A DNA stretch of 64,000 nucleotides from Candidatus Bathyarchaeia archaeon (GTDB lineage Archaea > Thermoproteota > Bathyarchaeia > Bathyarchaeales > Bathycorpusculaceae). Made by a program: the position numbers and the translations under genes. Shown piece after piece: positions 9,747 to 46,172 of the stretch. Under the pieces are notes generated by a model. That model had not been told where the DNA came from, did not search any database, and worked only from the letters and a program-made list of their open reading frames with translations. Every line of letters begins with the position of its first letter. The first letter of the stretch is position 1. The stretch covers positions 52,808-116,807 of the forward strand of contig JBEKWR010000004.1 of assembly GCA_049512935.1 (NCBI GenBank), read 5' to 3'.

Positions 9747-9992
9747 GTTTCAGTTGCACCTGTTCTAATCAACTATCAAATGATGGACTTTGAATATAAA
9801 TTCTGTTGATTCCTTTATCCCTGATACTTCCTCGCGCGCTAATTGTTAACAAGCTATGAAAAAGCTAGTGATCAGAATTTTTCGAAGGAGAATGAGCACA
9901 TCTGGGCAGAGCTGGTCTTACCAGATGACAGACGAATAGCAAAATGATAGAAATCTACGTGGGTTTTAAAAATTAACCAGAGTTATAGTAGA

Positions 9993-11036: not shown

Positions 11037-11236
11037 CAGTCCTCTCTTTTAACATCTCAATTGGTTCGCGGTGCTTTGGGAAGGCTTAAACAACGGCATA
11101 GCTTGTGATTTTTGGCATAATTATCAAGCGAAATACCAACATAATTCTTAATTAGATTACAAAATCAAGAGATAATTGAACATACAGGAAAAACCAAACT
11201 GCAAGAAATAATGCTTGAAGATATTTCATTTAGTAA

Positions 11237-11686: not shown

Positions 11687-11805
11687 CTAGTTCTTTATTT
11701 CTCCTTTATGCTATTTATTTGGTGCCGCGCGCAAGCTAAGCCACTAAAGAATATTTAGAGTGAACCAACCACAATTCATTTTCTCACATTGCCTAATACT
11801 TTCAC

Positions 11806-12630: not shown

Positions 12631-12809
12631 TTTTCCTCCACCCTCTTATCAATTAGATGATTTTGTCCGTCGCAATTTACTTACAAGCGATTTTTCTACT
12701 ATATACACCTATTCAGTACTTAAGATTTTTTCAAGAAAACTATCTAAAACTTCAGATTACCCTAAAATTAATAAGCAAAAACTCTACAGAATCAACTGAG
12801 CGGGTACAA

Positions 12810-13574: not shown

Positions 13575-13600
13575 TCACTTGGGAGAGCAGAAATACTAAC

Positions 13601-14572: not shown

Positions 14573-14655
14573 TAATTACTTTACCAGAATTCCTCTTGGT
14601 AAGAATTCGACATTCATCTTGATCGTACCAGCTTCCTTTCTAGGAAATATCGCCC

Positions 14656-15738: not shown

Positions 15739-15890
15739 AGATTTTTCCTCTTTTGATGCTTTGTATAAATCTAAGTTGCACTTTGCATTTTTAAGTTTTA
15801 TTTAATGATGGCGTTATTACTGACTTTTTGAAGCATGCGGAAGAGATTCAAGCGATAGTTACTATGCGAGAACATCCCAAATGTTAACTC

Positions 15891-29869: not shown

Positions 29870-30412
29870 ATGTCATGTGAACCCTGGCAATGTGCAGAAA
29901 TAGCCTCAACTAAAAAAGCAAACCCAATAACTAAACCCGAGATAGCAGTAGCGATGATCAAAAAAGCCCAACGCCCCATACTTATTGTGGGCAGCAACGC
30001 CACTGAAAGATACATGGAAGGCAAACAACTAATCGAATATGTAATCGACCTCGCAAAAGCATCAAAAGTACCAGTCGTAGCCACAGCCCACATGGTTGGC
30101 GAATTCATAAAACGCGGATATCAACCAGCGGCATTTATGAATGCGATGGAGATTGGCAACCTGGTGGTTGATCCAACCTGGCAGGGCTTAGACGGCAAAG
30201 GACACCCAGACCTGGTTCTAGTGATCGGGCTGCCTTACTATGTTGAATCATTATTGCTCTGCGGACTCAAACACTTTGCACCTGACCTAAAAACCATGAC
30301 ACTGGACAACTTGTTCCATGTGCATGCAAGCTGGTCTTTCCCAAACGCAACCCCAGAAGAGTGGGCTGCAAACCTCAAAGTCATAACTTCAAAATTTGAA
30401 GGAGGACAATAA
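29870..30412 (+). CDS. cdhB: CODH/ACS epsilon subunit
   Basis: PWQ..A, KKAQRPILIVG, WQGLDGKG..D, LKHFAP; follows cdhA. Confidence 0.93.
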   Translation: MSCEPWQCAEIASTKKANPITKPEIAVAMIKKAQRPILIVGSNATERYMEGKQLIEYVIDLAKASKVPVVATAHMVGEFIKRGYQPAAFMNAMEIGNLVVDPTWQGLDGKGHPDLVLVIGLPYYVESLLLCGLKHFAPDLKTMTLDNLFHVHASWSFPNATPEEWAANLKVITSKFEGGQ

Positions 30413-30416
30413 AAAA

Positions 30417-31832
30417 ATGTCAATGTTTAAAGATATACCCGTTGATGTAGGCGTAATCTACGAAGGAGAACGCATCAGAAGAAACGACATGCAAATAGAA
30501 CTCGGTGGACCAACAGTCAAACAGAAATTTGAACTCGCAAAAGTAAAACCCATGGATCAAATCGACGACGGAAAAATCACCATAATCGGCCCCGACATCA
30601 AAGACATGAAGGAAGGCGGCGCGTACCCGCTAGGCATCCTTGTTGAAGCTGCAGGCTCAAAACTCGACCAAGGCTTAGAAGGAGTCATTGAAAGACGCAT
30701 CCACGGCTACCTAAACTACATTGAAGGATTCATGCACCTGAACCAGCGTTACGACATCTGGATACGCCTCGGCAAAAAATCGTTCCAGAAAGGCTTAAAC
30801 AGCTTTGAACCAATCGGCAAAGTATTGTACCGCCTCTTCAAAAGTGAACTGCCAATCATCGAGAAAGTACAAATCACCTTCATAACTGACACGGCGAAAC
30901 TTGACGAAATGTACCCAGAAGCAATCCAAGCTTACGAGTCTCGCGATGCCAAGGCAAGAGGTCTCAAAGACGAAGACGTCGACACATTCTACGGCTGCGC
31001 ACTCTGCCAATCATTCGCGCCAAGCCACGTCTGCGTCATCACCCCGCAAAGGTACAGCAACTGCGGCGCCATCAGCTGGTTCGACGGCAAAGCCTCAGCA
31101 AGCATCGACCCCAAAGGTCCAGTCTTCGCTATACCCAGAGGACAAATGATAAACGCGGAAAAAGGCGAATTCAGCGGCGTCAACGAAGCAGCAAAGAAAC
31201 GCAGCATGGGCGAAGTCCAGCAAGTCTGGCTTTACACGGCTTTTGACCACCCGCACACTTCCTGCGGATGCTTCGAGGCAGTAACCTTCTACATCCCTGA
31301 AGTCGACGGATTAGCAGTAGTTCACAGAAGCTTCAAAGGACCAACAGTAAACGGCTTACCCTTCAGCACCATCGCGGACTCAGCGGCAGGCGGAAGACAA
31401 ATCGACGGCTTCCACGGAATGTCCATAGAATACATGAGAAGCAAGAAATTCTTCGCAGCAGACGGCGGATGGAACCGAATCGTTTGGGTACCTAAAGAAG
31501 TCAAGGAACGCGTTAAAGACTTCATTCCGCCAGAACTCGTTGACAAGGTAGCAACTGAAGAAGACGCAAAAACCGTTGACGAACTCAAAGCCTTCCTAAA
31601 AGCCAAGAACCACCCAGTAGTCGCAAGATGGGCAGCCGAAGAGGCACCAGCAGCACCCGAAGCGCAAGCAGTACAAGTCACCGAAGAAGCAGCAGGCACA
31701 ATGATGCCAGTTGCAACAGCAGGCACACTACCCATAATGGCAGGCGGGTTCAGAATCATCCTCAAAGACGCGAAAATCTACGCTAACAAAGTAATAATCC
31801 AAATAGTCAAAGACGACAAAGACAAGCGGTGA
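30417..31832 (+). CDS. cdhC: acetyl-CoA synthase beta subunit
   Basis: YEGERIR, CALCQSFAPSHVC, HTSCGCFE A-cluster motifs. Confidence 0.96.
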   Translation: MSMFKDIPVDVGVIYEGERIRRNDMQIELGGPTVKQKFELAKVKPMDQIDDGKITIIGPDIKDMKEGGAYPLGILVEAAGSKLDQGLEGVIERRIHGYLNYIEGFMHLNQRYDIWIRLGKKSFQKGLNSFEPIGKVLYRLFKSELPIIEKVQITFITDTAKLDEMYPEAIQAYESRDAKARGLKDEDVDTFYGCALCQSFAPSHVCVITPQRYSNCGAISWFDGKASASIDPKGPVFAIPRGQMINAEKGEFSGVNEAAKKRSMGEVQQVWLYTAFDHPHTSCGCFEAVTFYIPEVDGLAVVHRSFKGPTVNGLPFSTIADSAAGGRQIDGFHGMSIEYMRSKKFFAADGGWNRIVWVPKEVKERVKDFIPPELVDKVATEEDAKTVDELKAFLKAKNHPVVARWAAEEAPAAPEAQAVQVTEEAAGTMMPVATAGTLPIMAGGFRIILKDAKIYANKVIIQIVKDDKDKR

Positions 31833-33082
31833 CCAAGTTGCCTCAAGACGGCGACAAGAAAAAAGACAGCGAAGAACTAATACTCAGCAAAGAGTTGCTG
31901 GACGCGCTTGCGAAGTTCAAGCAAATCGAGATTGAAGACTTCGAGATCGACGTCAAAGAGCTAGAGCTAATCTTTGAGCCTGGAATGGCTGGGCAAGTGA
32001 TGCCCAAGCTAAAGCTTCCAGCCCCAGTTGCGGCAGGCGGAAAACCCACAGCCATGCTTCAGACGGCTTTCATACCGCCAATCGAAACCTACCCGAACAC
32101 GATAACAGAAGTCAAACTCGGCGCAACCCGAAGCGAAGGCGGAACACGCGGAAAATCATTCACCATAGGCGGCGAAACGTCACCCCCATTCTACAATTTT
32201 GAGCGACCCACCACTCACAAACCAGTAGTCACTTTGGACGTTTTCGACATGGAAGTGCCATTGAGCAAAGCCGTGAAGATGCACGTTAAAGACGTCGTCG
32301 GCGACCCAGCGGCATGGGCAAAACTTGCGGTAGACCAATTCAAAGCAGACATGGTTACAATCCATTTAATCAGCATCGACCCATTGCTCAAGGATGCAAC
32401 ACCGAAAGACGCGGTCAAAACGGTTGAAAAAGTTCTGCAAGCCGTGGATGTTCCCTTAGTCATCGGCGGCTGCGGGGACGCAGTAAAAGACGCTGACGTT
32501 TTCCAGGCGATCTGCGAGGCTTTCCCAGGCGAACGCTTCCTCATCAGTTCAATCACGCGGGACATGGATGTTGAACGCTGCGCAAAGTTCGTTAAGAAAA
32601 ACGGGCATGCTGCGCTCTCGTTCACACCGATGGACCTGAACCTGGCAAGGGAGCTTAACAGGCGGCTCTACGATTTCCTCGGCAGAGAAGACATTGTCAT
32701 GGACTTGACCACCGCGGCGCTTGGCTACGGCTTAGACTACGCATTCACAAACATGGAACGCGCAAGACTCGGCGGATTAATGGGCGACATGGAGCTGGCT
32801 CACCCGATGTCTTCGGGAACAACAAACGCTTGGGCTGCCCGTGAAGCCTGGCTGAAAATGTCTGCTGATTGGGAACCGCGCGAACTCCGAGGTCCACTGT
32901 GGGAAGTAACAACAGCCTTAACTCTTCTGCTTGCTGGCGTCGACCTGTTCATGATGATGCATCCAGCAGCCGTCAAAACACTCAAAGACGTAACCAACTA
33001 CCTGACAAGCGGCAAAAAAGCAGACCCAGCTAAATTCGCAGATTGGGTAACCATGAAAGCTCAAGGGGTTGGAAAGCAATGA
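31829..33082 (+). CDS. cdhD: corrinoid Fe-S protein small (delta) subunit
   Basis: LGATRSEGGTR, ALGYGLDY, NAWAAREAW, MMMHP. Confidence 0.95.
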   Translation: MTKLPQDGDKKKDSEELILSKELLDALAKFKQIEIEDFEIDVKELELIFEPGMAGQVMPKLKLPAPVAAGGKPTAMLQTAFIPPIETYPNTITEVKLGATRSEGGTRGKSFTIGGETSPPFYNFERPTTHKPVVTLDVFDMEVPLSKAVKMHVKDVVGDPAAWAKLAVDQFKADMVTIHLISIDPLLKDATPKDAVKTVEKVLQAVDVPLVIGGCGDAVKDADVFQAICEAFPGERFLISSITRDMDVERCAKFVKKNGHAALSFTPMDLNLARELNRRLYDFLGREDIVMDLTTAALGYGLDYAFTNMERARLGGLMGDMELAHPMSSGTTNAWAAREAWLKMSADWEPRELRGPLWEVTTALTLLLAGVDLFMMMHPAAVKTLKDVTNYLTSGKKADPAKFADWVTMKAQGVGKQ

Positions 33083-34500
33083 GCGAGAAAAAAAGAGCCA
33101 GCTTAAAAGAATTAAGCCCCATTGACATTTACAAGCTTCTTCCGAAAACTAACTGCAAGGAATGCGGTCAAGACAACTGCATGGCGTTCGCGACAAAAAT
33201 CGTTAACCGCGAAGTAGAAATCGACAGCTGCAAACCACTGTTCAAGCCCGAAAACGCGAAAGCCTACGCCAAACTCAAAGACCTGCTTAAGCCCGCCGTT
33301 AAGGAAGTCATCGTCGGCGTCGGCGACAAATCAAAGAAGCTCGGCGGCAAACTTGTCATGTACCGCCACGAGTTCACTTACAAGAACCCGACAGCTATCG
33401 CGATTGACGTGACCGACGAAATGCCAATGCAGGAAGTCGTCTCGCGTGTACAGTACACGGAGAACTTTAGCTTCGAATACATTGGTAACACGCTTAGGCT
33501 GGACATGATCGCGGTCAGATGCACTTCAGGAGACGCAGACAAATTCAAGGCAGTAGTCCAGAAAGTCGCGGAAACAACCAAACTTCCAATGATACTTTGC
33601 ACCCTGAACCCCGTGATCGCTGAAGCAGGCTTAATGGCGGCGCCAAAGGCGAAACCGCTACTGTACGCGGCAACTCAAACCAACTGGAAAGACATGGCTG
33701 AACTTGCCCTAATGTACGAGTGCCCGCTAGTTGCTTCTGCACCAAACGACTTGAACACGCTGGTTTCCCTTGCAAAGACACTTATGGCTTACGGAGTAAC
33801 CGACTTGGTTTTGGACCCAGGCACCTTCCCAAACGAAGGGTTACCTGACACAATCAACAACTTCACGATGCTGCGAAGGGCAGCATGCAAAGGCGGCGAA
33901 GAACTAGCAGGTTTCCCACTTATGGGCGTCCCGATGGTCGCTTGGAACGATAGCGCCTCGGCTGAAGACCTGCTGAAATGGCGTGAAGCATACTTAGCAG
34001 CAATGCTCATAGTTCGATACTCAGATGTGCTCGTGATGCACAGCGTAAGCGGCTGGTCACTTTTGCCAGATACAGTGCTGCGCCAGAACATCTACACTGA
34101 CCCACGCAAACCCGTCGCGGTCGCCCCAGGACTCAAAGTGTTCGGGACACCAGACGAGAACTCGCCAGTAATGTTCACCACAAACTTTGCCCTAACCTAC
34201 TACACCGTCGCCTCAGACCTCGAAAGCAGCAAAATCAACGCCTACCTAATCGTCGTTGAAACAGAGGGCTCAGCCATCGACAGCGGAGTCGCAGGACGAA
34301 AACTAACCGCGGAACGAGTAGCCGACGCAATCAAAGCCTCAGGCATCGAAAGCAAAGTCAAACACCGAAAACTCATAATCCCAGGCAAAGCATCACGAAT
34401 CAGCGGCGAAATCGAAGAACTCAGCGGCTGGAAAGTACTGGTCGGACCAAGAGACAGCAGCGAAATACCCAAATATCTCATAGAGAAATGGCAACCATAA
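33079..34500 (+). CDS. cdhE: corrinoid Fe-S protein large (gamma) subunit
   Basis: LPKTNCKECG..CMAFA, YTDPRKP, TNFALTY, VGPRDS; ATGA overlap with cdhD. Confidence 0.95.
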   Translation: MSEKKRASLKELSPIDIYKLLPKTNCKECGQDNCMAFATKIVNREVEIDSCKPLFKPENAKAYAKLKDLLKPAVKEVIVGVGDKSKKLGGKLVMYRHEFTYKNPTAIAIDVTDEMPMQEVVSRVQYTENFSFEYIGNTLRLDMIAVRCTSGDADKFKAVVQKVAETTKLPMILCTLNPVIAEAGLMAAPKAKPLLYAATQTNWKDMAELALMYECPLVASAPNDLNTLVSLAKTLMAYGVTDLVLDPGTFPNEGLPDTINNFTMLRRAACKGGEELAGFPLMGVPMVAWNDSASAEDLLKWREAYLAAMLIVRYSDVLVMHSVSGWSLLPDTVLRQNIYTDPRKPVAVAPGLKVFGTPDENSPVMFTTNFALTYYTVASDLESSKINAYLIVVETEGSAIDSGVAGRKLTAERVADAIKASGIESKVKHRKLIIPGKASRISGEIEELSGWKVLVGPRDSSEIPKYLIEKWQP

Positions 34501-34884: not shown

Positions 34885-35244
34885 TTGACGCAAACAATTA
34901 TAGTTGACGAAAATATCCCCCAAAGCGTCGCTAAATATCTTAACACGAAGGGCATAAAGACTTTTAGCATTTCCGACGATTTCCTGAAAAGCGCAAAAGA
35001 CTCAGTCATAGCTTCGTACGCATCAGAAAAAGGAATGCAGATATTGACGCTAGATTCTGACTTTGCTCAGTTGTATCACAACGTCTTCAGGGGCAGGATT
35101 ACCGTTTTACTTGTGAAAGCAAATCCAACAACCGCCGAAAACATAATCGATATTCTTGATGCAGCGCTAAATAAAATAAGAAAAACTGAAACCCCAAACA
35201 AGCTTGTCATAATCACAAAAAAGAGAATTAGAATAGTTTCTTAA
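34885..35244 (+). CDS. DUF5615 / PIN-like toxin
   Basis: IIVDENIP, D..I, ILTLDSDF PIN acidic motifs; follows DUF433. Confidence 0.88.
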   Translation: MTQTIIVDENIPQSVAKYLNTKGIKTFSISDDFLKSAKDSVIASYASEKGMQILTLDSDFAQLYHNVFRGRITVLLVKANPTTAENIIDILDAALNKIRKTETPNKLVIITKKRIRIVS

Positions 35245-35735: not shown

Positions 35736-37217
35736 ATAGGCTGCGGTATCTTCGGAGCAAAAAACTTTGAAAACCAAACGGTCTTTCCATACGTTTATTG
35801 GGGTCTCCGCGCCCAAAACCATCGAGGACACCAATCACACGGCTTCCTCACGTACGACAACAAGCAGTTTCATGTTTACAAAAGCTTGGATCTGGTTCCC
35901 CGCCTGAAAAACGAGGCTATCCACGAATGGTTCGACCGCCTGCCCGGTTCCGTAGGCATCGGCAACGTGCGTTACACCACGTCGGGCAAATGCGATGACG
36001 CCTCAATCATCGAGGGCACGCAGCCAGTAGCCGCTTCCGCAGGCGGGATAAAGATTGCGTTGTCGTTTAACGGCAACATCGTTAACACTCTGCCCCTGAA
36101 AAAGGAAATGAGCGAAAACTTCTCAGACTTCTACTTCAACTGCGACTCAGACGTGGTCTGCCACAAGCTGCTCCTCGGGCTGAAACAGGGCAAAGACCTG
36201 GCGTCTGCGGTGCGCTCTGTCATGGAAAGCCTCGACGGCGCGTTCTCCGTGACGGGCTTAACGGGCGACGGCGACTTTTTCGCCTTCAAAGACCCGCGTG
36301 GAATAAAACCCCTCTGCGCAGGGCACGACCCCCAAGGGGCAACCTACGCTTTTTGCTCTGAAACCGTCGGGTTAGACATGAACAGTTTCGTCAGGGACTT
36401 TGAATTGAATCCTGGCGAGCTGGTCACGGCTTCAAAAGACGGCTTCAAACGCACACAAATCATCCAAAATCCCCATCCAGCCTTCTGCGCTTTCGAGTAC
36501 GCCTACTTCGCGAGGCCCGACTCAAGGTTTGACGGCAAGTACGTTTATGAAATCCGCGAGGACTTCGGAAGAAACATCGTTAAAGAGTATCCAGACGTGG
36601 TGAAGGACGCTGACATCATCATGTCGGTGCCTGAGACAGGCGATGACCCAGCCATGGGCGTCCATGAGGCGTCAGGTTTACGGTGGGAACGCGCTTCAAG
36701 AAGGCACCGCTACGTAACCGAACGCGCCTTCATCCTTCTTAACACCGAGCGTTTCTCGACCATTGACAAGAAAATCAACATCTTAGGCTCCAAAGTAGAC
36801 GGCAAACGCGTCATAATAACTGAGGACAGCATAGTCCGAGGCGACACCACAAAAGTAATCATAGACAAGCTCCGCAGGGCAGGAGCCAAAAAAGTCTACG
36901 TCTTCGTCACGTTCCCAAGAATCATCGGTCCATGCTTCTACGGCATCGACATGTCAACTTACGGGCAACTCGTCGGCTCAAAACACGACGCAGACGGAAT
37001 CGCCAAAATCATCGGCGCAGACGGGGTATGCTACCAGTCAATTGGAGAGCTGGTGAAAGCGACAGGTCAAACCGAAAATGAACTCTGCATGGCCTGCATC
37101 ACAGGCAAGTACCCGACGCCCTGCGCTCAAAAGATGGCTGACGCCATGAAAAAGAGGTTCCTTGAAGGCTACGAGGAAAAATCAAGAATCTACGAGACTG
37201 AGGACGTTCAGCCGTAA
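35736..37217 (+). CDS. purF: amidophosphoribosyltransferase; apparent ATA start
   Basis: In-frame extension of the tracked ORF gives (M)GCGIFG..QNHRG; RYTT, NGN, CAFEYAYFARPDS, EDSIVRG, CFYGID, CMAC. Confidence 0.92.
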   Translation: MGCGIFGAKNFENQTVFPYVYWGLRAQNHRGHQSHGFLTYDNKQFHVYKSLDLVPRLKNEAIHEWFDRLPGSVGIGNVRYTTSGKCDDASIIEGTQPVAASAGGIKIALSFNGNIVNTLPLKKEMSENFSDFYFNCDSDVVCHKLLLGLKQGKDLASAVRSVMESLDGAFSVTGLTGDGDFFAFKDPRGIKPLCAGHDPQGATYAFCSETVGLDMNSFVRDFELNPGELVTASKDGFKRTQIIQNPHPAFCAFEYAYFARPDSRFDGKYVYEIREDFGRNIVKEYPDVVKDADIIMSVPETGDDPAMGVHEASGLRWERASRRHRYVTERAFILLNTERFSTIDKKINILGSKVDGKRVIITEDSIVRGDTTKVIIDKLRRAGAKKVYVFVTFPRIIGPCFYGIDMSTYGQLVGSKHDADGIAKIIGADGVCYQSIGELVKATGQTENELCMACITGKYPTPCAQKMADAMKKRFLEGYEEKSRIYETEDVQP

Positions 37218-37277
37218 GAACGGCAGCAAAAACATTAAGCCTGCCCTTAACCTCTCGCAGTAACCTGGTGATGTCTT

Positions 37278-38693
37278 ATGGAGAAAATAGGTGTACTCGT
37301 CGTTTCCTACGGCGCAAGAGAAGTCGCGATGGCTGACGCGCTTCTGCAGAGCAAACGCTACCAAGTGGAACTCTACGTCGCCGACAAGCAGCGCAACCCC
37401 TTCAACGCGGAAAAAGCCGCAAAACATGCTGTCATACCAAGCCTTGACGTGGGAGAAATCTGCAAGTTCGCCGAAGCCTACAAGGAAAAAATCGACTTCG
37501 CCTTGGTCGGGTCAGAAAAACCCATAATCGAAGGCGTCCGAGACCAAGTTGAGAAACGCACAGGCATCCCCGTCATCTGCCCCAAGCAACAATATGCCAT
37601 CGAAGTCAGCAAAGTTGAGCAACGCCAGCTTTTCGACGAGATTGCGCCAGAAGCGAACCCGCGCTTCAAAGTTTTCAACCCAGCCGACTACGCGAACAAA
37701 TTAGACGTTAAACCTGCCGTTTACAGCTGGCTAGACGAACTTGACAATCAAGCCGTCGTGAAGCCTGATAAGCCAGCCCTTGGAAAAGGCGTAGGCGTTT
37801 GGGGCGACCACTTCGCCAACCGAGAAGAACTTTTTGAGCATTTCATGTCCAACTTCCAGTACGGCAGCGTCATAATCGAAGAAAAAATCGACGGAGAAGA
37901 ATCCAGCTTTATGGCTTTCTGCGACGGCAAACACTTCGTGCCGCTGCCTGACACGCGGGACTACAAACGCGCCTTCGACGACGATCGAGGCCCAAACACG
38001 GGCGGCATGGGCTCATACAAAGACGCAGACGACAAGCTGCCCTTCTTAACGGCGGCTGAACGAGAGGCGGAGCTGGCTTTGGCGAACAAGATTTTCAACG
38101 GGTGGAGCGCCAAAATCAAAGATTACTCCGCGCTTAGGGGCGTGCCCCTGTATCTTGCCTTCATGCACACGGGGCACGGAATCAAAGTTCTCGAGAACAA
38201 CAGTCGCCCAGGCGACCCAGAAATAATCAACCTTCTCGCGTTGATCCAGGACGATTTTGTCGACGTCTGCCTCAAAATGATTGAAGGAAACCTGACAAGC
38301 ATCAAACTGGAAAAGGCTGCGTCTGTCTTGACCTACAAGGTGCCACTTGACTACGGCGGCTACGCAGAAGTCTTCCCGAAAAAAGCGGACAAGACGGCGG
38401 TTAACACTCCAGTTGACCTCTCAAAAGCCTATGCGCTGACAAAGAAGTACGGCAGCCGCATCCGCATTTACCCTGGCTCAATGGAAACAAGAGACGGCAA
38501 AAACTACGCGCTCAAATCGCGTGCGGTGGGCGTTTTAGGCATCGGCGAAAGCATCGAAGAGGCACGCAGCATAAGCCTGGAAGGAACCAAAGCCATCAGT
38601 GGCGGCGCCTTGTGGAGTCGAACAGACGTTGCCTCAAGACAGCATATCGCGAAGAGCGTAAGTCACATGGAAAACCTGAGGCGCAGCGTGTGA
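37278..38693 (+). CDS. purD: phosphoribosylamine--glycine ligase
   Basis: GARE, GKGV, IEEKIDGEE.S, DYKRAFDDDRGPNTGGMG, NSRPGDPE. Confidence 0.92.
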   Translation: MEKIGVLVVSYGAREVAMADALLQSKRYQVELYVADKQRNPFNAEKAAKHAVIPSLDVGEICKFAEAYKEKIDFALVGSEKPIIEGVRDQVEKRTGIPVICPKQQYAIEVSKVEQRQLFDEIAPEANPRFKVFNPADYANKLDVKPAVYSWLDELDNQAVVKPDKPALGKGVGVWGDHFANREELFEHFMSNFQYGSVIIEEKIDGEESSFMAFCDGKHFVPLPDTRDYKRAFDDDRGPNTGGMGSYKDADDKLPFLTAAEREAELALANKIFNGWSAKIKDYSALRGVPLYLAFMHTGHGIKVLENNSRPGDPEIINLLALIQDDFVDVCLKMIEGNLTSIKLEKAASVLTYKVPLDYGGYAEVFPKKADKTAVNTPVDLSKAYALTKKYGSRIRIYPGSMETRDGKNYALKSRAVGVLGIGESIEEARSISLEGTKAISGGALWSRTDVASRQHIAKSVSHMENLRRSV

Positions 38694-39769
38694 AGCGCAT
38701 CTTTATATCCGACTGTGAGGGACCGATCAGCAAGAACGACAACGCCTTCGAGTTAGCTTCAAACTTCATTCCCAACGGTGACAAACTTTTCGTAAACGTA
38801 AGCAGGTACGACGATGTTTTGGCGGATGTTCTGCACAAGCCCGGTTACTCTGCAGGCGCCACGTTGAAGCTCATCTTGCCCTTCTTTAAGGCGTACGGCG
38901 TCACCGACAGGCAGATGGAAGAGTACTCAGCCAACAACATAGTCCTAATCACTGACAGCCAAACAACCCTTAGGCACGTGCAATCCATTGCCGACGCCTT
39001 CATCGTCAGCACAAGCTACGAACACTACATCAAAGCCCTCTGCAAAACCGTGAGCTTTCCTTTCAAGAACACGTACTGCACCAAAGTAAGCCTCGACAAG
39101 ACCGCCATCTCCCCGCAGGAAAAAGAGCGCTTAAGAACCATAGCCCAAGAAATCGCGCTGATGCACAAAGTTGACATTCCGAAGGCGGCAAAGGCGCTTG
39201 AAGATTTTTCCGAAAGCGACCAAGCGGTCATTCAACGTTTAGACGAGATATTCTGGAGCGAAATTCCAAAGATGTTTGTCGGAAAATTCCTCGTTGACGT
39301 GGTGACGGTCGGTGGAGAACAGAAGGCTGAGGCAATCCGCGATGCGGTTCGACGTTCAGGCGCGGATTTGGCGGGTGTCATGTATGTGGGGGACAGCATC
39401 ACCGACGCGGAAGCCTTCAAACTCGTGCGTGCTAACGGCGGATTAACGGTTTCTTTTAACGGCAACGGATACGCGGTTAGGACCGCTGAAGTCGCCATAT
39501 TATCGGAGAGCAGTCTCGTCACCGCCGTGGTTGCGGACTTGTTCTGCAGGTTCGGGAAAGAAAAAGCGGTAAGCACGGTTCAAGAGTGGGGTTTTGAAAC
39601 GCTCAAAAACAGCGGTGTTGACTCTTCACTGCTTAAACAGCTTTCACAACTTTGCCCTGACGTGTTGCCTAAAGTTGAAATAGTGACGCCTCAAAATATG
39701 GAGGCGTTGGCAAAGGAAAGCAGCGAGTTCAGAGGGAAAGTGCGGGGAGTTGTGGGGAGGCTCGGGTAA
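38690..39769 (+). CDS. HAD-superfamily hydrolase (EhaR-like)
   Basis: Motif I variant FISDCEGP, motif II IVSTS, motif IV YVGDSITD..A, SFNGN; GTGA overlap with the purD stop. Confidence 0.8.
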   Translation: MKRIFISDCEGPISKNDNAFELASNFIPNGDKLFVNVSRYDDVLADVLHKPGYSAGATLKLILPFFKAYGVTDRQMEEYSANNIVLITDSQTTLRHVQSIADAFIVSTSYEHYIKALCKTVSFPFKNTYCTKVSLDKTAISPQEKERLRTIAQEIALMHKVDIPKAAKALEDFSESDQAVIQRLDEIFWSEIPKMFVGKFLVDVVTVGGEQKAEAIRDAVRRSGADLAGVMYVGDSITDAEAFKLVRANGGLTVSFNGNGYAVRTAEVAILSESSLVTAVVADLFCRFGKEKAVSTVQEWGFETLKNSGVDSSLLKQLSQLCPDVLPKVEIVTPQNMEALAKESSEFRGKVRGVVGRLG

Positions 39770-39770
39770 A

Positions 39771-40679
39771 ATGGTGAAGGCGGAAATCGAGGACACGTAC
39801 GCTGAAGCTTTCACTGGACTCTTTTGCCGCGTAATCGTGACCGCCGACGACGAGGAAACCCTTCGTAAGGCTGCTGCGGATTCTACGGCAACCCCATCGG
39901 TCGTTATCGGCAGGACAGAAGGCGGAATCGAAAAGTACCTTACCCAAAAAGAAACCCCTGACCAGCGCTTAGGCGCGTTGCTTCAGTTCTGGGGCGAAAT
40001 TAACCCGAAGAAAACCTTTGAGCAGTCGCTCAAGAAGTTTGAATCTGAGCTTTCCTACCGCATCCGCCAAGACATTCTTGTTAAGCCTTTCACCGCCGTC
40101 TACGACGCCCTGCCAGACGCTGAGGGCAAACTGGACATGATGGAGACTGTTGGACACTGCGGCGACGGGTACGAGTGGATTGAAAAACGCCGTGGCAGAG
40201 AGGTCATAGTTGTCCCCTTGATGGTTCCCGACTTCGTTATTGAACGGTGTTTAGGCTACGCGCGTGGCGTTATGGGAGGCAACTTTTGGGTTATGTGCAA
40301 AACCAAGCAAGCCATGAAACAGGCGGGAAAGAAGGCTTTAGCCGCAGTCCACACGGTGCTCGGAGTCGTGACACCTTTTGACGTTTGCTCCGCAGGCTCT
40401 AAACCCGAAACCCATTTTCCAAAGATCGGTCCAACCACCAATCACCTGTACTGCCCGTCGCTTAAGGCGCGGTTAGGCACGGAATCCCATGTTCCCGACG
40501 GCGTAGGTTACATAGCTGAAATAGTCATTGACGGGGTTTCTTTGGAAGCGGTCAAAAAAGCAACTAAAGCGGGAATCCAAGCGGTACGGGACATTGACGG
40601 GGTCGTGAGGGTTTCCGCTGGCAATTACGGTGGCAAACTGGGCGACTACAAAATAAGTTTGCGGGAGTTGTTTCCATGA
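39771..40679 (+). CDS. formylmethanofuran:H4MPT formyltransferase (Ftr) family protein, divergent paralogue
   Basis: IEDTYAEAF, ETPD, GDG.E, GGNF, GSK, TNH.YCP.L, SAGNYGGKLG; starts 1 nt after the HAD stop. Confidence 0.88.
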   Translation: MVKAEIEDTYAEAFTGLFCRVIVTADDEETLRKAAADSTATPSVVIGRTEGGIEKYLTQKETPDQRLGALLQFWGEINPKKTFEQSLKKFESELSYRIRQDILVKPFTAVYDALPDAEGKLDMMETVGHCGDGYEWIEKRRGREVIVVPLMVPDFVIERCLGYARGVMGGNFWVMCKTKQAMKQAGKKALAAVHTVLGVVTPFDVCSAGSKPETHFPKIGPTTNHLYCPSLKARLGTESHVPDGVGYIAEIVIDGVSLEAVKKATKAGIQAVRDIDGVVRVSAGNYGGKLGDYKISLRELFP

Positions 40680-41593
40680 CAAAGTTTGATGTTGTCGGCT
40701 TTGGCGCGCTTAACGTTGACATGCTCCTCAAAGTCGATAGGCTTGCAGGCGCGGAGGAAGAAAGTTTTATTGCGGATTACGCTGAGGCTTGCGGCGGCTC
40801 AGCTGCGAACACCATGGTTGGGCTGGCGAGGCTCGGGTGTAAAGTCGGGTTCATAGGAAAAGTGGCGAACGACCGTGAAGGCAAACTGCAAATTGACTGT
40901 TTTAACAGTGAAGGCGTTGACACGGGCGGCATCATTCAGGCAAAGCATGGGAAAAGCGGTTCAGTTTTGGGCTTCGTGGACAAGAAAGGCGCAAGAGCCC
41001 TGTACATTAACCCAGGCGTTAATGACACAATTGAGCCTCGGGAAATAAATTACGGTTACACCTTGGAAACGAAATTTCTGCATTACTCATCTTTTGTTGG
41101 AGAAAAATCTCTTCGTGCGCAAAAAAAGCTCTTAGGTGCCCTGCACAGCGATGTTAAAATCAGCTTTGACCCAGGTTCAGTTTATGCACAGAAAGGTTTT
41201 GCCGCAATAGAACCGATAATTCGCAGTTCTTATGTTTTGATGCCTAACGCTGGTGAACTTGAACTTTTAACTGGAGAAGCTGATGTCCCCAGAGGCGCCG
41301 ATTTGATGCTTGATGCAGGCGTCAAAATCGTCGCAGTTAAGCTCGGCGACAGGGGCTGCTACGTCACTGACGGGCAGGAACGGCTGAAAATCGAGCCTTT
41401 CAAAGTTAAAGTCGTCGACACAACCGGGGCAGGGGACGCTTTCTGCGCGGGATTCCTCTACGGCTTAATCAACGACAAAAGTCTCCAAGAATGCGGGCGA
41501 CTGGGAAATTTCGTCGCTTCAAGATGCGTCATGCAGATGGGTGCGCGTGCAGGTTTGCCTTACGCTAAAGATTTAGTGGCATTTCTTGGTTAG
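40676..41593 (+). CDS. PfkB/ribokinase family kinase (nucleoside kinase-like)
   Basis: GGSAANT..GLARLG, VVDTTGAGDAF; ATGA overlap with the Ftr-like gene. Confidence 0.93.
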   Translation: MTKFDVVGFGALNVDMLLKVDRLAGAEEESFIADYAEACGGSAANTMVGLARLGCKVGFIGKVANDREGKLQIDCFNSEGVDTGGIIQAKHGKSGSVLGFVDKKGARALYINPGVNDTIEPREINYGYTLETKFLHYSSFVGEKSLRAQKKLLGALHSDVKISFDPGSVYAQKGFAAIEPIIRSSYVLMPNAGELELLTGEADVPRGADLMLDAGVKIVAVKLGDRGCYVTDGQERLKIEPFKVKVVDTTGAGDAFCAGFLYGLINDKSLQECGRLGNFVASRCVMQMGARAGLPYAKDLVAFLG

Positions 41594-42394
41594 GTTGTCG
41601 ATGATGCTTTGGAAGATTAGTTTTCCGTCGCCGTACTGCGTCATCTGCTGTTGCCTTGTCCAGTCAGGCTGCTGCCACCAGTACATCGCCCTCTCCGGGT
41701 GAGGCATAAGCCCGAAGACGTTTCCTTCCCTATTGCACAGGCCCGCGATGTCGAAGGTTGAGCCGTTCGGGTTGACTGGGTACTTGCCGTCCGCTACGTC
41801 GCCGTTTTTGTCGCAGTAGCGGAAAACCACCATGTCTTTATCAGCCAGTTCCGCAAGCAACTCCCTCTCTTTCTCTTTTGGGAAAAGCAGTCTGCCTTCC
41901 CCGTGAGCAATGGGCATCCTCAGCACTTTTCCAGCGGGGATTTTGTTTGTGAACGCGCATTTTCCACGGTTTTCATGCTTCAGGTAAACCCACTGGCACT
42001 TGAAGCCTGCAGGTTCATTGTTGGTTAACGTGGCTTCTGGGTAAGTGCTCACGCCTTTGAAGCCTGGCAGCAAACCGTACTCAACCATTATTTGGAAGCC
42101 GTTGCATATGCCCAGAATGGGTCTGCCTTCGTCGATGAATTTTTCCATTTCCTTGCCGAGCTTGGCGCTGAGGTGCCTCGCGAAAATCACGCCTGAACGC
42201 ACATAGTCGCCAAACGAGAAGCCGCCTGGAAAAACCAGAACCTGATAATCCAGCAAACTGTGAAGTTTCGCCAGTTCGTTAACCTGCAAGACGTCCGCTT
42301 GGATGCCTAGCTCCTGAAAAGCCCGCTGGGTCTCAGCGTCACAGTTGGTTCCGCCGACACGCATCACGCAAACTTTGATTTCTTCCTGCTCCAT
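41573..42394 (-). CDS. purQ: FGAM synthase glutaminase subunit
   Basis: GTNC, PGGFSFGD, GICNGFQ, AHGEG, MPHPER. Confidence 0.96.
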   Translation of the reverse strand: MEQEEIKVCVMRVGGTNCDAETQRAFQELGIQADVLQVNELAKLHSLLDYQVLVFPGGFSFGDYVRSGVIFARHLSAKLGKEMEKFIDEGRPILGICNGFQIMVEYGLLPGFKGVSTYPEATLTNNEPAGFKCQWVYLKHENRGKCAFTNKIPAGKVLRMPIAHGEGRLLFPKEKERELLAELADKDMVVFRYCDKNGDVADGKYPVNPNGSTFDIAGLCNREGNVFGLMPHPERAMYWWQQPDWTRQQQMTQYGDGKLIFQSIIDNLTKKCH

Positions 42395-42395
42395 C

Positions 42396-44786
42396 TTAGG
42401 AACCTCCACTCAACGTTTTCTTCCAGCTGCCCCGCAGCTCTGCAAGCGAAGCGTCGACAGCGATTTTTCCTTTTAACCCGTTAATGACTAGACGTTGGTC
42501 TTCGGTTACCCTGCCAATTTGGGCGCAGGGCTTGCCTTTCATTAGAAGTTCAAAGTCCCGCTTATCCTGCTCTGGCACTTCCAGCAGGAAACGGCTGTTC
42601 GACTCGGAAAACAACACAAAATCATCGCGCTCCACTCCTTTAGCGGGCACTTTGCATAAATCCAGCTGCAAACCGTAGCCGCCAGCAAACGCCATCTCCG
42701 CCGCCGCCACCGCCAACCCTCCTTCCGAGAGGTCGTGGCATGACCTGATTAAGCCCGAGTCTATGGCTTTAGTTACTGTTCTGAACGTGCGTTTGGCTTT
42801 GGCGCCTTTAACTTTTGGAACGCTTGCGCCCAAGTAGCCTTTAAGCCTGTAGTATTCTGAACCGCCAAGCTCGCTGAAGGTTTCGCCAGCGACGTAGAGC
42901 AGGTTGCCTGGCGCTTTCAAATCCATCGAAGTGACAAATTGGATGTTTGGAATTATGCCCACAGCGGTTATCAGCAGTGTCGGCGTGACTGGTCCCATCG
43001 GAGACTCGTTGTAGAGGCTGTCTTTTCCCGAGATAAACGGCGTCTTGAACGCCACGGCAAAGTCGTAGCATGCTTGGCAGGCTCTCACCAAAGTGCCTAG
43101 ACGCTCTGGCTTCTCAGGGTTGCCCCATGTGAAGTTGTCCAGCAGCGCTATTCTTCTTCCGCCCACGGAGATGTTGTTGCGTACCGCTTCGTCAATGGCT
43201 GAAGCCGCCATCCAGTACGCGTCGATCTTGCCGTAGTTCGGGTTCATTCCGCATGAAATTGCTAAGCCTTTCCAAGAGTCGTCAAGAGGTTTGAGCACGG
43301 CGGCATCGTTTGGACCGGCATACTCGCCTTGCAGGGGTTTAAGCGTCGTGTTTCCCTTTACCTCATGATCGTATGTTCGTATGACGCTTTCTTTGCTGGC
43401 GATGTTTGGCGCCCCAAGCAGCTGAAGCAGGGTTTCAGTCAGGTTTTTTGGCTCTGGAAACTCGGGTTCAACGAAGTTTTGTCTTTCAAGTGTCGCTGTC
43501 TTCGTGCTTTTGCACGGATTAAACAGGAAATCCATGTCCATGTCAGCAACTTTTTCCCCGTTGAAATCAAGCTCAAGCCGACGCAAAGGGGTGAGTTTGC
43601 CTATCGCTGTGGCTTCTACGTCTTCTTTTGCGAAAATCGCCATCACTCGCTCCAAGTTCTCAGGCGGCACGGTTATGAGCATTCTTTCCTGTGATTCAGA
43701 AATGTAAATCTCCCACGGCGCTACACCTTGATACTTGAGCGGCACCCTGTCAAGTTCAATCGTTACTCCACACCCGAATCTTTCAGCTGTTTCTCCAACA
43801 GCAGAGGATAAACCCCCGCCGCCAAGGTCAGTCGTCGCCGACGCAAGCTGCAGGTCGCGGATTTCAATTATTGCCCGTTTGACTTTCTCCTCTTCGATTG
43901 GATCGGCGATTTGCACGGCTGGACGGGAAATCTCCTCCGACTTCTCGGTTAATTCCGCAGAGGCGAAGGTAACGCCGTGTATGCCATCGCGTCCAGTTTT
44001 TCCACCTGCCAGAACAACGATGTGCCCTGGCTTGGCGTTTTTTGTGAACTTGTCAAGTGGCAAGATTCCTATGCATCCGCAGTAAACGGTGACGTTGCCC
44101 GTGTAGCTTTCATCAAAGTAAATTGCCCCGTTCACGGTTGGGATGCCCATGTTGTTTCCGTAGGCGCTGATGCCCGCCGTGACGCCCATGTAAACGTATT
44201 TTGGGTGTTTCACGCCCGCGGGAAGCTTGTTGTAATCGTAATCCAGCGGTCCGAAGCCTAAAACGTCCGTGCAGGCGATCGGGTCAGCCCACACGCCGAG
44301 GATGTCTCTGATTACGCCGCCGACGCCTGTGGCTGCTCCGCCGAATGGTTCCACAGCGGACGGGTGGTTGTGCGTTTCAACTTTTGCTGCTATGCCGTAG
44401 CCCCTGTCGAATCGGACGATGCCTGCGTTGTCTTCGAATACGCTGAAGCACCATGGCGGGTTGATTTGTTTGGTGGCTTTTGCGACGTAGGTTTTGAAGA
44501 GGCTGTCGATTTCTTTGCCGTCGAAGAAGATTTTTCCTTTGAAAGTCTTGTGGCAGCAGTGTTCTGACCAGGTTTGGCTGATGGTTTGCAGTTCAACGTC
44601 GGTCGGGTTTCTGCCTTCACGTTTGAAGTACGCTCGGATGCTCTTCAACTCTTCAAGGCTTAAGCCTAAGGCTAGCTCGTCGCTGGCTTCGGCGAGTTGC
44701 TGCTCGCTGGCTTCGGCTAAGGCTACCTCGTACAGCAGATAGCCCGCTTTGCGTGGGACGTAGAGGTTGGCGTTCTTAGCGTTCAT
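42396..44786 (-). CDS. purL: FGAM synthase subunit PurL
   Basis: QTWSEHC.H, ETHNHPS, DLGGGG, SESQERM, SGKDS, HDLSEGG. Confidence 0.97.
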   Translation of the reverse strand: MNAKNANLYVPRKAGYLLYEVALAEASEQQLAEASDELALGLSLEELKSIRAYFKREGRNPTDVELQTISQTWSEHCCHKTFKGKIFFDGKEIDSLFKTYVAKATKQINPPWCFSVFEDNAGIVRFDRGYGIAAKVETHNHPSAVEPFGGAATGVGGVIRDILGVWADPIACTDVLGFGPLDYDYNKLPAGVKHPKYVYMGVTAGISAYGNNMGIPTVNGAIYFDESYTGNVTVYCGCIGILPLDKFTKNAKPGHIVVLAGGKTGRDGIHGVTFASAELTEKSEEISRPAVQIADPIEEEKVKRAIIEIRDLQLASATTDLGGGGLSSAVGETAERFGCGVTIELDRVPLKYQGVAPWEIYISESQERMLITVPPENLERVMAIFAKEDVEATAIGKLTPLRRLELDFNGEKVADMDMDFLFNPCKSTKTATLERQNFVEPEFPEPKNLTETLLQLLGAPNIASKESVIRTYDHEVKGNTTLKPLQGEYAGPNDAAVLKPLDDSWKGLAISCGMNPNYGKIDAYWMAASAIDEAVRNNISVGGRRIALLDNFTWGNPEKPERLGTLVRACQACYDFAVAFKTPFISGKDSLYNESPMGPVTPTLLITAVGIIPNIQFVTSMDLKAPGNLLYVAGETFSELGGSEYYRLKGYLGASVPKVKGAKAKRTFRTVTKAIDSGLIRSCHDLSEGGLAVAAAEMAFAGGYGLQLDLCKVPAKGVERDDFVLFSESNSRFLLEVPEQDKRDFELLMKGKPCAQIGRVTEDQRLVINGLKGKIAVDASLAELRGSWKKTLSGGS

Positions 44787-45034
44787 TGCTGCGCCTCAAG
44801 GGTCACCGTGTAATTGTCTTTGGTCGGGTTTGCCAGAAGGCGCTTGCACATTTCTTCCGCCTTTGCCTTTGCCTCTTTAGGTGTTGCTGCGTCAAGCGTC
44901 ACAGTGTAGACTTTGCTCACGTCTACGGCTTCCACCTTGTAGCCGAGTTCCTTCAGTAAACGGGCTGTTGTTTCCCCTTCAGGGTTGCTGTGCCCTGGCT
45001 TTAGGCTGACTTCGATTTTGGCTTGGTATTTCAT
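44783..45034 (-). CDS. purS: FGAM synthase subunit PurS
   Basis: LKPG..NPEG, MCKRLLANP; located between purM and purL. Confidence 0.93.
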   Translation of the reverse strand: MKYQAKIEVSLKPGHSNPEGETTARLLKELGYKVEAVDVSKVYTVTLDAATPKEAKAKAEEMCKRLLANPTKDNYTVTLEAQQ

Positions 45035-45092
45035 AAATCCTTTAAATTATCCTACAGGATTTAAACGCTTTCGACATAAAAAAAGCAAAACT

Positions 45093-46172
45093 TTACGTTA
45101 AAACCAGCCTTTTATTTTGGTACTCTATTACCACCGTTTGCTTGTCCGTCACTTTGCCTATCAATTCAGGCTGTGCACCTTGCCGTTCCAGCGTGCTCAT
45201 GGCTTTATCAACCTCCGCTCTGCCGACAATTATGCCGAAGCCCCATCCCATGTTGAAAGTTTTGAACATCTCCTCATCAGAAATGCTGTAGCCCAGTTCC
45301 AGAGCGGTTTTTTGGATTAACCCAAATATGGGTTGAGGTTTGAAGTTTGTGAATTTAAATCCTATTCCAGGCGAAAAATTGGCAAGGTTGCCAAATTTCA
45401 TGTAAGCGTCGCCCGTTATGTGAACCGCGGCTTTAACCTTAACCTGCTTGGCTACTTTGAGAAGCGGTTTAACGTAGATTTTTGTGGGCTTCAGCGCCTC
45501 AAGAACGATCTCCGTGTCGAAGCCGTCGGGGATGTCGTTGGGTTCGTATTTTCCGCCCCACAGCTTAAAGAGAATCTTTCGCACCATCGTCAAGCCGTTG
45601 CTGTGTACCCCGCTGCTTGCCAAGCCTATTATTGGGTCTTCGGGCTTGATGTTTTCGCCCGTGATGATCTCCTGCCTTTCAACGGTGCCGACCGACGTAA
45701 CCACCATGTCAAAACCGACCCTTTGAGCCAAGCCCTTTATTATCTCCGCCACGTCGCCCGTTTCGCCTCCCGTGACTGGGCACTCGGCGTCGGCGGCGCC
45801 TTGAATTATCCCCTTCAGGAGTTCTCTGACAAGCTTAGGTTTGCTGGCTTGCACGTGGATGTTGTCGGCTATGGAGAGTGGTCTGGCTCCTGAACGTATC
45901 ACGTCGTTGACCGCCATCGCCACGGCGTCCACGCCTATTGTGTCGTACTTGTCGGCTAGCTGCGCGAGCAGCACTTTGGTGCCAACGCCTTCGATGACAA
46001 GGTCCAGGAAGGTGTTTTCTCCCACTGGGAAGATGTTGCCGTATGGGAGCCTCATGACGTTTCCGAAGTGGCTGTGTTTGTAGGTCTCCGTAAGTTTTTT
46101 AAGCGCCTTTTTGGATTCGACGCGTTGCTCCCGGTTTACTCCTGCGTCCGTGTATGTGTAGTTTTTAGGCAA
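45093..46172 (-). CDS. purM: AIR synthetase
   Basis: YTDAGV, EGVGTK, GGET, SSGVHSNG, HITG, TFNMG. Confidence 0.95.
   Translation of the reverse strand: MPKNYTYTDAGVNREQRVESKKALKKLTETYKHSHFGNVMRLPYGNIFPVGENTFLDLVIEGVGTKVLLAQLADKYDTIGVDAVAMAVNDVIRSGARPLSIADNIHVQASKPKLVRELLKGIIQGAADAECPVTGGETGDVAEIIKGLAQRVGFDMVVTSVGTVERQEIITGENIKPEDPIIGLASSGVHSNGLTMVRKILFKLWGGKYEPNDIPDGFDTEIVLEALKPTKIYVKPLLKVAKQVKVKAAVHITGDAYMKFGNLANFSPGIGFKFTNFKPQPIFGLIQKTALELGYSISDEEMFKTFNMGWGFGIIVGRAEVDKAMSTLERQGAQPELIGKVTDKQTVVIEYQNKRLVLT

Follow-up and report, generated by a model that had tools for sequence, protein, structure and literature searches.

How does an archaeon that encodes nearly every enzyme of purine synthesis formylate glycinamide ribonucleotide (GAR), the third step of the pathway, when it has no recognizable PurN or PurT? 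The question is raised by a 64,000-nucleotide stretch of a Candidatus Bathyarchaeia archaeon genome (the window), whose purine (pur) gene cluster carries, in place of those genes, a paralogue of Ftr, the formylmethanofuran:tetrahydromethanopterin (H4MPT) formyltransferase. A sequence-only reading of the window had proposed this paralogue, here called FtrII, as a new kind of GAR formyltransferase. We found that FtrII and two partners, a haloacid dehalogenase (HAD)-like protein and a PfkB-family kinase (together, the trio), occur almost only in archaea without PurN and PurT, which makes the trio the best candidate for step 3. Across 393 sampled genomes, a PurN or PurT-like gene was present in 7 of the 231 FtrII-positive genomes as compared to 129 of the 162 FtrII-negative ones. 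On these comparisons we consider it probable, though well short of certain, that the trio formylates GAR with formyl-methanofuran or formyl-H4MPT as the donor.

The purine cluster and its missing step

We analyzed the cluster at 35736-46172 with Pfam and NCBIfam models and identified nine genes, five on the plus strand and four convergent on the minus strand. They are listed here after the genes for carbon monoxide dehydrogenase/acetyl-CoA synthase (CODH/ACS) that precede them; ORF is open reading frame and FGAM is formylglycinamidine ribonucleotide.

29870..34500, plus strand: CODH/ACS genes of the CdhB, CdhC, CdhD and CdhE types (Pfam CO_dh; CdhC and ACS_CODH_B_C; CdhD; CdhD and FeS)
35736..37217, plus strand: purF, amidophosphoribosyltransferase, step 1 (TIGR01134, 291 bits for the shorter ORF from 35886)
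37278..38693, plus strand: purD, GAR synthetase, step 2, divergent type (GARS_A/N/C domains; TIGR00877, 242.7 bits against a cut-off of 288)
38690..39769, plus strand: atypical HAD-superfamily protein P0272, 359 aa (weak Pfam HAD matches; PDB 1Y8A, E=2e-33)
39771..40679, plus strand: FtrII, Ftr-family paralogue P0001, 302 aa (Pfam FTR 149.1 bits, FTR_C 181.2 bits)
40676..41593, plus strand: PfkB-family (ribokinase-like) kinase P0273, 305 aa (Pfam PfkB, 176 bits)
41573..42409, minus strand: purQ, glutaminase subunit of FGAM synthase, step 4 (NF002252, 311 bits, above cut-off)
42396..44786, minus strand: purL, FGAM synthase, step 4 (TIGR01736, 697 bits, above cut-off)
44783..45034, minus strand: purS, FGAM synthase subunit, step 4 (TIGR00302, 74.7 bits, above cut-off)
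45093..46172, minus strand: purM, aminoimidazole ribonucleotide (AIR) synthetase, step 5 (TIGR00878, 260.6 bits, above cut-off)

The gene content and coordinates given by the sequence-only reading held, and the same models found no PurN or PurT within the cluster. The cdh genes do lie directly upstream at 29870-34500, as it had said, and they show that the organism runs an H4MPT-type Wood-Ljungdahl pathway. The junctions across purD-HAD-FtrII-pfkB also read in the DNA as claimed: purD and the HAD-like gene share a GTGA overlap at 38690-38693, the HAD-like gene ends with TAA at 39767-39769 and is followed after one base by the ATG of FtrII at 39771, and FtrII and the kinase gene share an ATGA overlap at 40676-40679. 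These overlapping stops and starts, together with the order purF-purD-HAD-FtrII-PfkB, place the trio between steps 2 and 4.

The gap extends to the genome as a whole (2.30 Mb in 49 contigs, rated 93% complete, with the window on contig C4). The PurN-type domain Formyl_trans_N (PF00551) had 0 matches in the genome, and the FtrII protein itself contains neither this domain nor an ATP-grasp domain. The best genome matches to the PurT model TIGR01142 scored 50.7 and 37.7 bits against a cut-off of 502, both in other genes. The first, in a 1090-aa open frame, is probably carbamoyl-phosphate synthase; the second, an ATP-grasp protein on contig C38, was rejected as PurT, being an MfnD-like ligase between MfnA and MfnF of methanofuran synthesis. 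Neither purN nor purT, either of which would have counted against the proposal, was thus found in this genome. With purE, purC, two tandem purP genes and purB encoded elsewhere, the pathway is complete to 5-formamidoimidazole-4-carboxamide ribonucleotide (FAICAR) except for step 3. A PurH-type 5-aminoimidazole-4-carboxamide ribonucleotide (AICAR) formyltransferase (PurH-AICARFT) and a formate-tetrahydrofolate ligase (FTHFS) were not found in the genome, and nothing in it points to folate-bound formyl groups.

Two further observations concern the pur genes themselves. The catalytic Cys motif of purF ('IGCGIFG') begins at 35736, so that the start proposed there was right; the codon at this position encodes Ile and is not ATG, GTG or TTG, and the GCGIFG Cys motif lies in frame upstream of the shorter ORF (start 35886). 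The frame opens after a stop and has no ATG, GTG or TTG upstream of the catalytic Cys (35736-35886), which implies that translation begins at a non-standard codon or that a very short propeptide is present. The second pur cluster, purE-purC-purP-purP, is located on contig C3:126387-131000; one of its PurP proteins fits the PurP models much worse than the other (311 vs 447 bits) and is probably a 'cluster II' PurP.

Distribution of FtrII against PurN and PurT

To define the distribution of FtrII we sampled 121 genomes of the organism's class (Bathyarchaeia), 121 of the phylum of a Methanobacteriaceae genome (the Methanobacteria-type sample) and 151 of a third phylum. Matches to the window protein were bimodal, with FtrII-type proteins at 48-100% identity and at least 258 bits and canonical Ftr at 35-44% identity and at most 215 bits. 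In the Bathyarchaeia sample 45 genomes were FtrII-positive (two on fragments only). None of these had PF00551 and one, G001, had a PurT-like match of 175 bits that may be PurK, so that the predicted lack of purN and purT in relatives of the organism was also borne out. Among the 76 FtrII-negative Bathyarchaeia, PF00551 was present in 39 and a PurT-like gene in 12, and none of the three systems was found in 25, many of which are small or incomplete. The solutions alternate even within a single Bathyarchaeia family of 14 genomes (f10), where 2 had FtrII, 8 PurT-like, 1 PurN and 3 none.

The other two samples gave a similar picture. FtrII was present in 121/121 Methanobacteria-type genomes, with PF00551 found in 0/121 and PurT in 0/121 at E<=1e-30. 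In the third phylum, 65 of the 151 genomes were FtrII-positive, of which 6 had PurN and 0 had PurT, while PurN or PurT was detected in 78 of the 86 FtrII-negative genomes; purD was present in 149 of the 151, including all 65 FtrII carriers. PF00551 was also not found in five further FtrII carriers (Promethearchaeota-, Hadarchaeota- and other-labelled metagenome-assembled genomes), two of which were searched for PurT.

The partners follow FtrII. In the third phylum the HAD-like protein was found in 61/65 FtrII-positive as compared to 13/86 FtrII-negative genomes. A PfkB protein 43-47% identical to the window copy was present in 5/5 FtrII-positive genomes tested from this phylum, and the trio-type PfkB in 0/5 FtrII-negative genomes with canonical Ftr and PurN or PurT, where the best match was 29-32% identical or absent. 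The trio is therefore co-inherited even where its genes are unlinked. We also noted that ~31 of the 151 third-phylum genomes have a sub-cut-off PurD type like that of the window (215-259 bits). The HAD-like gene appears to be present in every one of them, even where PurN is encoded and FtrII is not, a hint that its product may be linked with PurD or GAR no less than with FtrII.

In one third-phylum group (L098-L109, L033, L053), FtrII has 67-75% identity to Bathyarchaeia FtrII and branches from within it in the tree, and the group apparently acquired FtrII from Bathyarchaeia in two transfers. A decaying 3' remnant of the HAD gene lies upstream of the transferred FtrII in 9/12 loci. The short ORFs at this position were considered as a conserved mini-protein and rejected, since they are HAD 3' remnants (with a stop in L103 and a frameshift in L101). 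The recipient genomes have their own, more distant HAD-like gene and a PfkB gene elsewhere.

The carriers include lineages in which the step 3 enzyme has been sought before. In the available passages of Brown 2011 (PMC3261824), no GAR formyltransferase was found in two Archaeoglobi, four Methanobacteriales-named species and M. kandleri. ANME-1 was added to these lineages in a later account, as quoted from it (PMC9012536), and an excerpt of a 2023 review still has M. kandleri without purT (PMC10025317). A subgroup of the third sample, with FtrII 51-54% identical to the window protein, could be assigned to Archaeoglobi from the public names of proteins 74-100% identical to those of one member, among them Ferroglobus, Geoglobus, A. 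fulgidus, A. veneficus, A. profundus and others. The FtrII of A. fulgidus (P0425) is 51% identical to the window protein and 38% identical to canonical Ftr, and differs from the solved canonical A. fulgidus enzyme; this species has canonical Ftr, FtrII and the HAD-like protein AF1437. Methanobacteria (121/121) and named Archaeoglobi, which were reported to lack a GAR formyltransferase, thus carry FtrII. In the full-text literature, outside subscription journals and supplements, we found neither a function for EhaR/S/T (the hydrogenase-operon counterparts of the trio, described below) or AF1437 nor a proposal that an Ftr paralogue formylates GAR.

FtrII, its partners and their neighbourhoods

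FtrII passed the Pfam models for both lobes of the Ftr family (cut-offs 27 bits for FTR and 25 for FTR_C) and the broader subfamily model NF002554 (336.7 bits, cut-off 297), but scored 235.4 bits against the fhcD/ftr equivalog TIGR03119, under its cut-off of 292.6. It shares its two-lobe FTR and FTR_C architecture, with a similar length and no other domain, with canonical Ftr (PDB 1FTR/2FHJ, 1M5H, 1M5S) and with FhcD (6S6Y), which works in a formyltransferase/hydrolase complex; unlike canonical Ftr, it travels with the HAD-like protein and the PfkB kinase. The window copy is not the only ftr of the organism. A canonical copy is located on contig C9, the two being 35% identical to each other, and against three solved archaeal Ftr structures the C9 copy scored ~305 bits and the window copy 163-183 bits. 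Canonical Ftr coexists with FtrII in nearly all carriers.

An exhaustive search of 1.84 billion representatives yielded 644 Ftr-family clusters only. We built a tree of 106 rows from 47 of 57 full-length representatives, 57 hand-picked genome-derived copies and the two copies of this organism (quick LG+G4 model, Shimodaira-Hasegawa-like approximate likelihood-ratio test (SH-aLRT) support only, midpoint root, solved Ftr sequences left out). It contained a canonical clade of 40 rows (100%), a third clade of 8 rows and an FtrII clade of 58 rows at 98% SH-aLRT, and the same split between FtrII and canonical Ftr was obtained at 99% in an earlier 59-row tree. The window copy accordingly falls outside the canonical clade, as had been anticipated, and as judged from the tree FtrII is an old, distinct paralogue clade of the formyltransferase.

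We identified 31 core positions conserved in both clades. Among them is E250, which aligns with the Ftr catalytic Glu and corresponds to Glu245 of the M. kandleri enzyme as counted from the alignment; it reaches >=85% conservation in either clade and does not vary among 12 diverse FtrII sequences. Approximately 17 positions were FtrII-specific, of which 4 are fixed differently (C130/F, A208/S, E213/G, P221/A) and 13 are conserved in FtrII only. The segments that the sequence-only reading had singled out as divergent, STATPSVVIGRTEGG and RIRQDILVKP, are present in the translation and overlap the FtrII-only conserved P42, G47 and R99. The Rosetta-stone candidates P0162, P0168, P0170 and P0142 were set aside as canonical-type (an FwdA-like amidohydrolase or FwdC-like GXGXG protein fused to Ftr, or Ftr alone). 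A 606-codon frame joining FtrII and PfkB (L040:8001-9818) was rejected as a fusion because FTR_C is cut at profile position 101 of 149, which indicates a frameshift; it is probably a long-read assembly indel or a pseudogene.

The HAD-like protein of the window matched PDB 1Y8A, 'hypothetical protein AF1437' of Archaeoglobus fulgidus, over residues 4-294 (E=2e-33). Among the HAD models of Pfam, PF08282 reached 26.1 bits against a cut-off of 20.9 and the others fell under theirs. An alignment of 15 sequences from 3 phyla had as invariants D8-x-E10-G-P, S107, K212, GDSITD at 234-239 and a C-terminal R..R.....LG. Motif I is thus DxEGP and not DxDxT, with the nucleophile Asp kept and Asp+2 replaced by Glu, and motifs II (Ser/Thr), III (Lys) and IV are invariant; the protein is likely a phosphoryl-transfer enzyme. 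In the alignment AF1437 shares the N-terminal DxEGP motif and resembles the window protein in its C-terminal tail; its structural-genomics entry carries no function, and the tie to FtrII, PfkB and purine synthesis is made here. The window PfkB is well within its family (176 bits against a cut-off of 25.8) and shows the N-x-D, GG and DTTGAGD motifs, but passed no equivalog model, the nearest being ribokinase (167 bits vs 299.65); its PDB neighbours at ~100 bits are fructo-, ribo- and adenosine kinases. By their motifs both partners look like working enzymes. A predicted complex of the HAD-like protein with FtrII scored 0.00 in two runs without controls, and this counts neither way.

We next compared 80 loci from named genomes, retrieved with a 6-sequence FtrII alignment and probed with the window's own proteins. 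In the 63 Bathyarchaeia-labelled loci, HAD-FtrII-PfkB was present in 53, FtrII-PfkB in 61, purD upstream in 53 and at least one pur gene in 58, and several of the loci without the full set were short contigs. Since this gene order recurs in related genomes, the arrangement in the window is not due to chance. Methanobacteriaceae had the same trio in the same order, with FtrII at 57-64% identity, in 6/7 labelled loci and in 10/10 further loci. The identity between the window trio and one Methanobacteriaceae trio was 42% for the HAD-like protein, 61% for FtrII and 46% for PfkB. In the third phylum, FtrII stood beside its partners in 2/30 loci and the neighbours varied. Taken with the co-inheritance described above, these comparisons argue that the unit is a three-gene module of HAD-like protein, FtrII and PfkB, and not Ftr alone.

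The Methanobacteriaceae trio follows genes of the energy-converting hydrogenase Eha (EhaJ-, L-, M-, N- and O-type and two polyferredoxins), and the JGI name for Methanobacteria HAD-like homologues is 'energy-converting hydrogenase A subunit R'. By name and gene order the trio is EhaR/S/T of Methanobacteria, annotated without an assigned function. The HAD-FtrII-PfkB order of these last three genes of the Methanobacteriales eha operon is identical to that of the window trio, but EhaR/S/T end a hydrogenase operon whereas the trios of the window and of most Bathyarchaeia sit in a purine cluster. According to passages of Kaster 2011 (PMC3087415), the last eha genes were first annotated as Ftr and ribokinase, and a formyltransferase or sugar-kinase role was doubted because they are co-transcribed with ehaA-R. 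The same passages are inconsistent, with EhaS as Ftr and EhaT as ribokinase in one place and the second Ftr coding sequence as EhaT in another, and a table lists MTH403 for Ftr. The gene order of locus L074 supports S as the Ftr-like protein and T as PfkB. MTH403 is presumably a number within the eha range. In the present genome the trio is on C4 and the only Eha-like (group-4 hydrogenase) core is on C37; EhaL and EhaM were not found in the genome by BLASTP at E<=1e-3.

Around the cluster, a 263-nt contig from a public metatranscriptome matched 38472-38734 exactly and spans the purD stop and the HAD start. The same run, which contains 5% of the sampled words, gave seven short contigs on the window, one of them exact, which is too little to speak of co-transcription. 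A PIN-like DUF5615 gene lies between the cdh and pur clusters (34885-35244), and a PQQ/beta-propeller repeat protein and a PPK2 polyphosphate kinase are encoded downstream of purM (47080-48456 and 49191-50093). The region 8001-16000 of the window has a G+C content of 0.37-0.40 as compared to 0.44-0.53 elsewhere in it and may be a foreign island.

Proposed reaction and competing explanations

In the reaction of Ftr, a formyl group passes between the methanofuran aminomethyl amine and H4MPT N5; GAR presents a comparable primary CH2-NH2 amine. We propose that FtrII retains this chemistry, in which a Glu assists as a primary aminomethyl amine gains or gives up the formyl group, with the glycinamide amine standing in for that of methanofuran, so that GAR would be converted to formylglycinamide ribonucleotide (FGAR). 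In the simplest view FtrII would have exchanged one substrate site. With GAR bound in the methanofuran site, formyl-H4MPT would be the donor; with GAR bound where H4MPT otherwise sits, the donor would be formyl-methanofuran. This latter option, which departs from the formyl-H4MPT donor first proposed, would fit the attachment of the trio to Eha, Eha being regarded as the source of reduced ferredoxin for making formyl-methanofuran from CO2. Either way, purine C8 would be drawn directly from the CO2-reduction branch of the Wood-Ljungdahl/methanogenesis pathway. The proposed product and pathway position are those of the folate-dependent PurN and the formate/ATP-dependent PurT. FtrII has no homology to either, its proposed donor is a methanogenic C1 carrier, and three proteins may be needed instead of one. 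The fold and the chemistry are already known; what is new is the reaction assigned, the grouping of three genes as a module and the tie to the pathway.

Since a probable HAD-like phosphoryl-transfer enzyme and a putative ribose-5-OH-type kinase co-vary with FtrII, the same ribotide is suggested as their substrate. In a three-enzyme cycle, the HAD-like protein would dephosphorylate GAR to glycinamide riboside, FtrII would formylate the riboside from formyl-methanofuran or formyl-H4MPT, and PfkB would re-phosphorylate formylglycinamide riboside to FGAR, trapping the product and pulling a near-equilibrium transfer. Such a cycle would spend one ATP, as PurT does. We regard this specific version, an ATP-driven formylation through unphosphorylated intermediates in which EhaR/S/T would be a purine module and not hydrogenase parts, as possible and still rather doubtful.

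Several points weigh against FtrII as the step 3 enzyme, the support for which is entirely comparative. The mutual exclusion with purN and purT that had been predicted is near-complete in the pooled counts but imperfect, since 6/65 third-phylum and 1/45 Bathyarchaeia FtrII-positive genomes also have a PurN or PurT-like gene. Genomes G320 and G336 have the trio together with PurN, and PurN also accompanies FtrII in four subclade IIb genomes; two Bathyarchaeia genomes without PurN carry a IIb copy in the order purD-HAD-FtrII-PfkB. No FtrII, PurN or PurT-like gene was found in 25/121 genomes of the Bathyarchaeia sample and 8/151 of the third phylum. The HAD-like protein is kept in 13/86 FtrII-negative genomes, 8 of them with PurN, and these eight overlap the divergent sub-cut-off PurD type. 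The dividing line for FtrII was set after the bimodal scores were seen. The related genomes are not independent, and Fisher tests ignore relatedness and overstate the association; moreover, PF00551 also covers other formyltransferases and the genomes are metagenome-assembled ones of varied completeness. The conserved pur linkage expected by the sequence-only reading stood for Bathyarchaeia-type loci and is confined to them: the Methanobacteria trio follows hydrogenase genes, and the FtrII genes of Archaeoglobi and others lie by themselves among differing neighbours. A one-enzyme model leaves the conservation of an apparently active HAD enzyme and a kinase unexplained. Lastly, formyl-H4MPT is not believed to be usable as a formyl donor in the passages seen of Brown 2011 (PMC3261824).

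The explanation that survives best beside GAR formylation by the trio is that the trio has no role in step 3 and is an Eha accessory, an anabolic Ftr isoenzyme or a system for methanofuran/H4MPT maintenance, its anticorrelation with PurN reflecting a folate-free, H4MPT-only lifestyle. The databases name the trio genes as Eha subunits, FtrII keeps the whole Ftr catalytic core, and the Methanobacteria trio ends the eha operon, reportedly co-transcribed with ehaA-R according to the part of Kaster 2011 consulted (PMC3087415). An Eha accessory is at odds with the window trio, which sits in a pur cluster on another contig than the only group-4 hydrogenase core, in a genome in which the search named above did not find EhaL or EhaM. 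A cofactor-biosynthesis role predicts presence in all H4MPT users. Likewise, if lifestyle were the cause, H4MPT users with PurT or PurN and canonical Ftr should carry FtrII, but they mostly do not (0/17 PurT and 6/71 PurN genomes in the third phylum). We consider this explanation unlikely.

Less likely again, in our view, is formylation of GAR with formate and ATP by a PurP-family ATP-grasp ligase, either the 'cluster II' paralogue or PurP acting twice, with the trio doing something else. In its favour, a tandem pair of PurP-family genes follows purE-purC in this genome, PurP belongs with PurT to the ATP-grasp enzymes that use formate and ATP, and cluster II PurP proteins are without a demonstrated function in the sections of Brown 2011 at hand (PMC3261824). 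The same sections place cluster Ib/II pairs in Thermococci, Crenarchaeota and Thaumarchaeota and assign PurN to Thaumarchaeota, and PurT is assigned to most Thermococci in an extract of the 2023 review (PMC10025317). Paired PurPs thus occur in lineages with PurN or PurT, and the pair does not track the step 3 gap. In addition, exactly one PurP was detected in 117/121 Methanobacteria-type genomes, two in 1 (one of them a 183-aa fragment) and none in 3. A PurP-type enzyme would also leave the pur-operon position of the trio and its complementarity to PurN and PurT unexplained.

It is highly improbable that FtrII is a formyl-methanofuran/formyl-H4MPT hydrolase or transferase that releases formate for formate-dependent ligases, like E. 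coli PurU: although the Ftr homologue FhcD (PDB 6S6Y) is among the structure matches and the organism needs formate for PurP in a genome where FTHFS was not found, a formate supplier should co-occur with PurT, yet FtrII is in 0/17 third-phylum PurT genomes, GAR formylation would be left without an enzyme in single-PurP Methanobacteria, and M. marburgensis formate-dehydrogenase mutants need added formate (Kaster 2011, PMC3087415, as excerpted), so that no other internal source is sufficient in that species.

GAR formylation by the trio, our preferred reading, bears on an acknowledged hole in archaeal metabolism. In the portions of the literature cited here, the step 3 enzyme has been missing since at least 2011 from Methanobacteriales, Archaeoglobi and Methanopyrus, and later from ANME-1 (PMC3261824, PMC9012536, PMC10025317). 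Among the affected archaea are the chief methanogens of animal guts and power-to-gas reactors, and the hole now becomes a testable claim with named genes, ehaR/S/T, in culturable organisms, the same family being linked to purine operons in Bathyarchaeia, which are abundant sediment archaea. If the proposal is true, there would be a third, unrelated class of GAR formyltransferase, and three supposed hydrogenase subunits would be re-annotated. It would also correct metabolic models that now gap-fill step 3, and would explain why the carriers need neither folate nor a second formate-dependent ligase. Methanofuran- or H4MPT-bound formyl groups would then feed biosynthesis directly, against the prevailing view.

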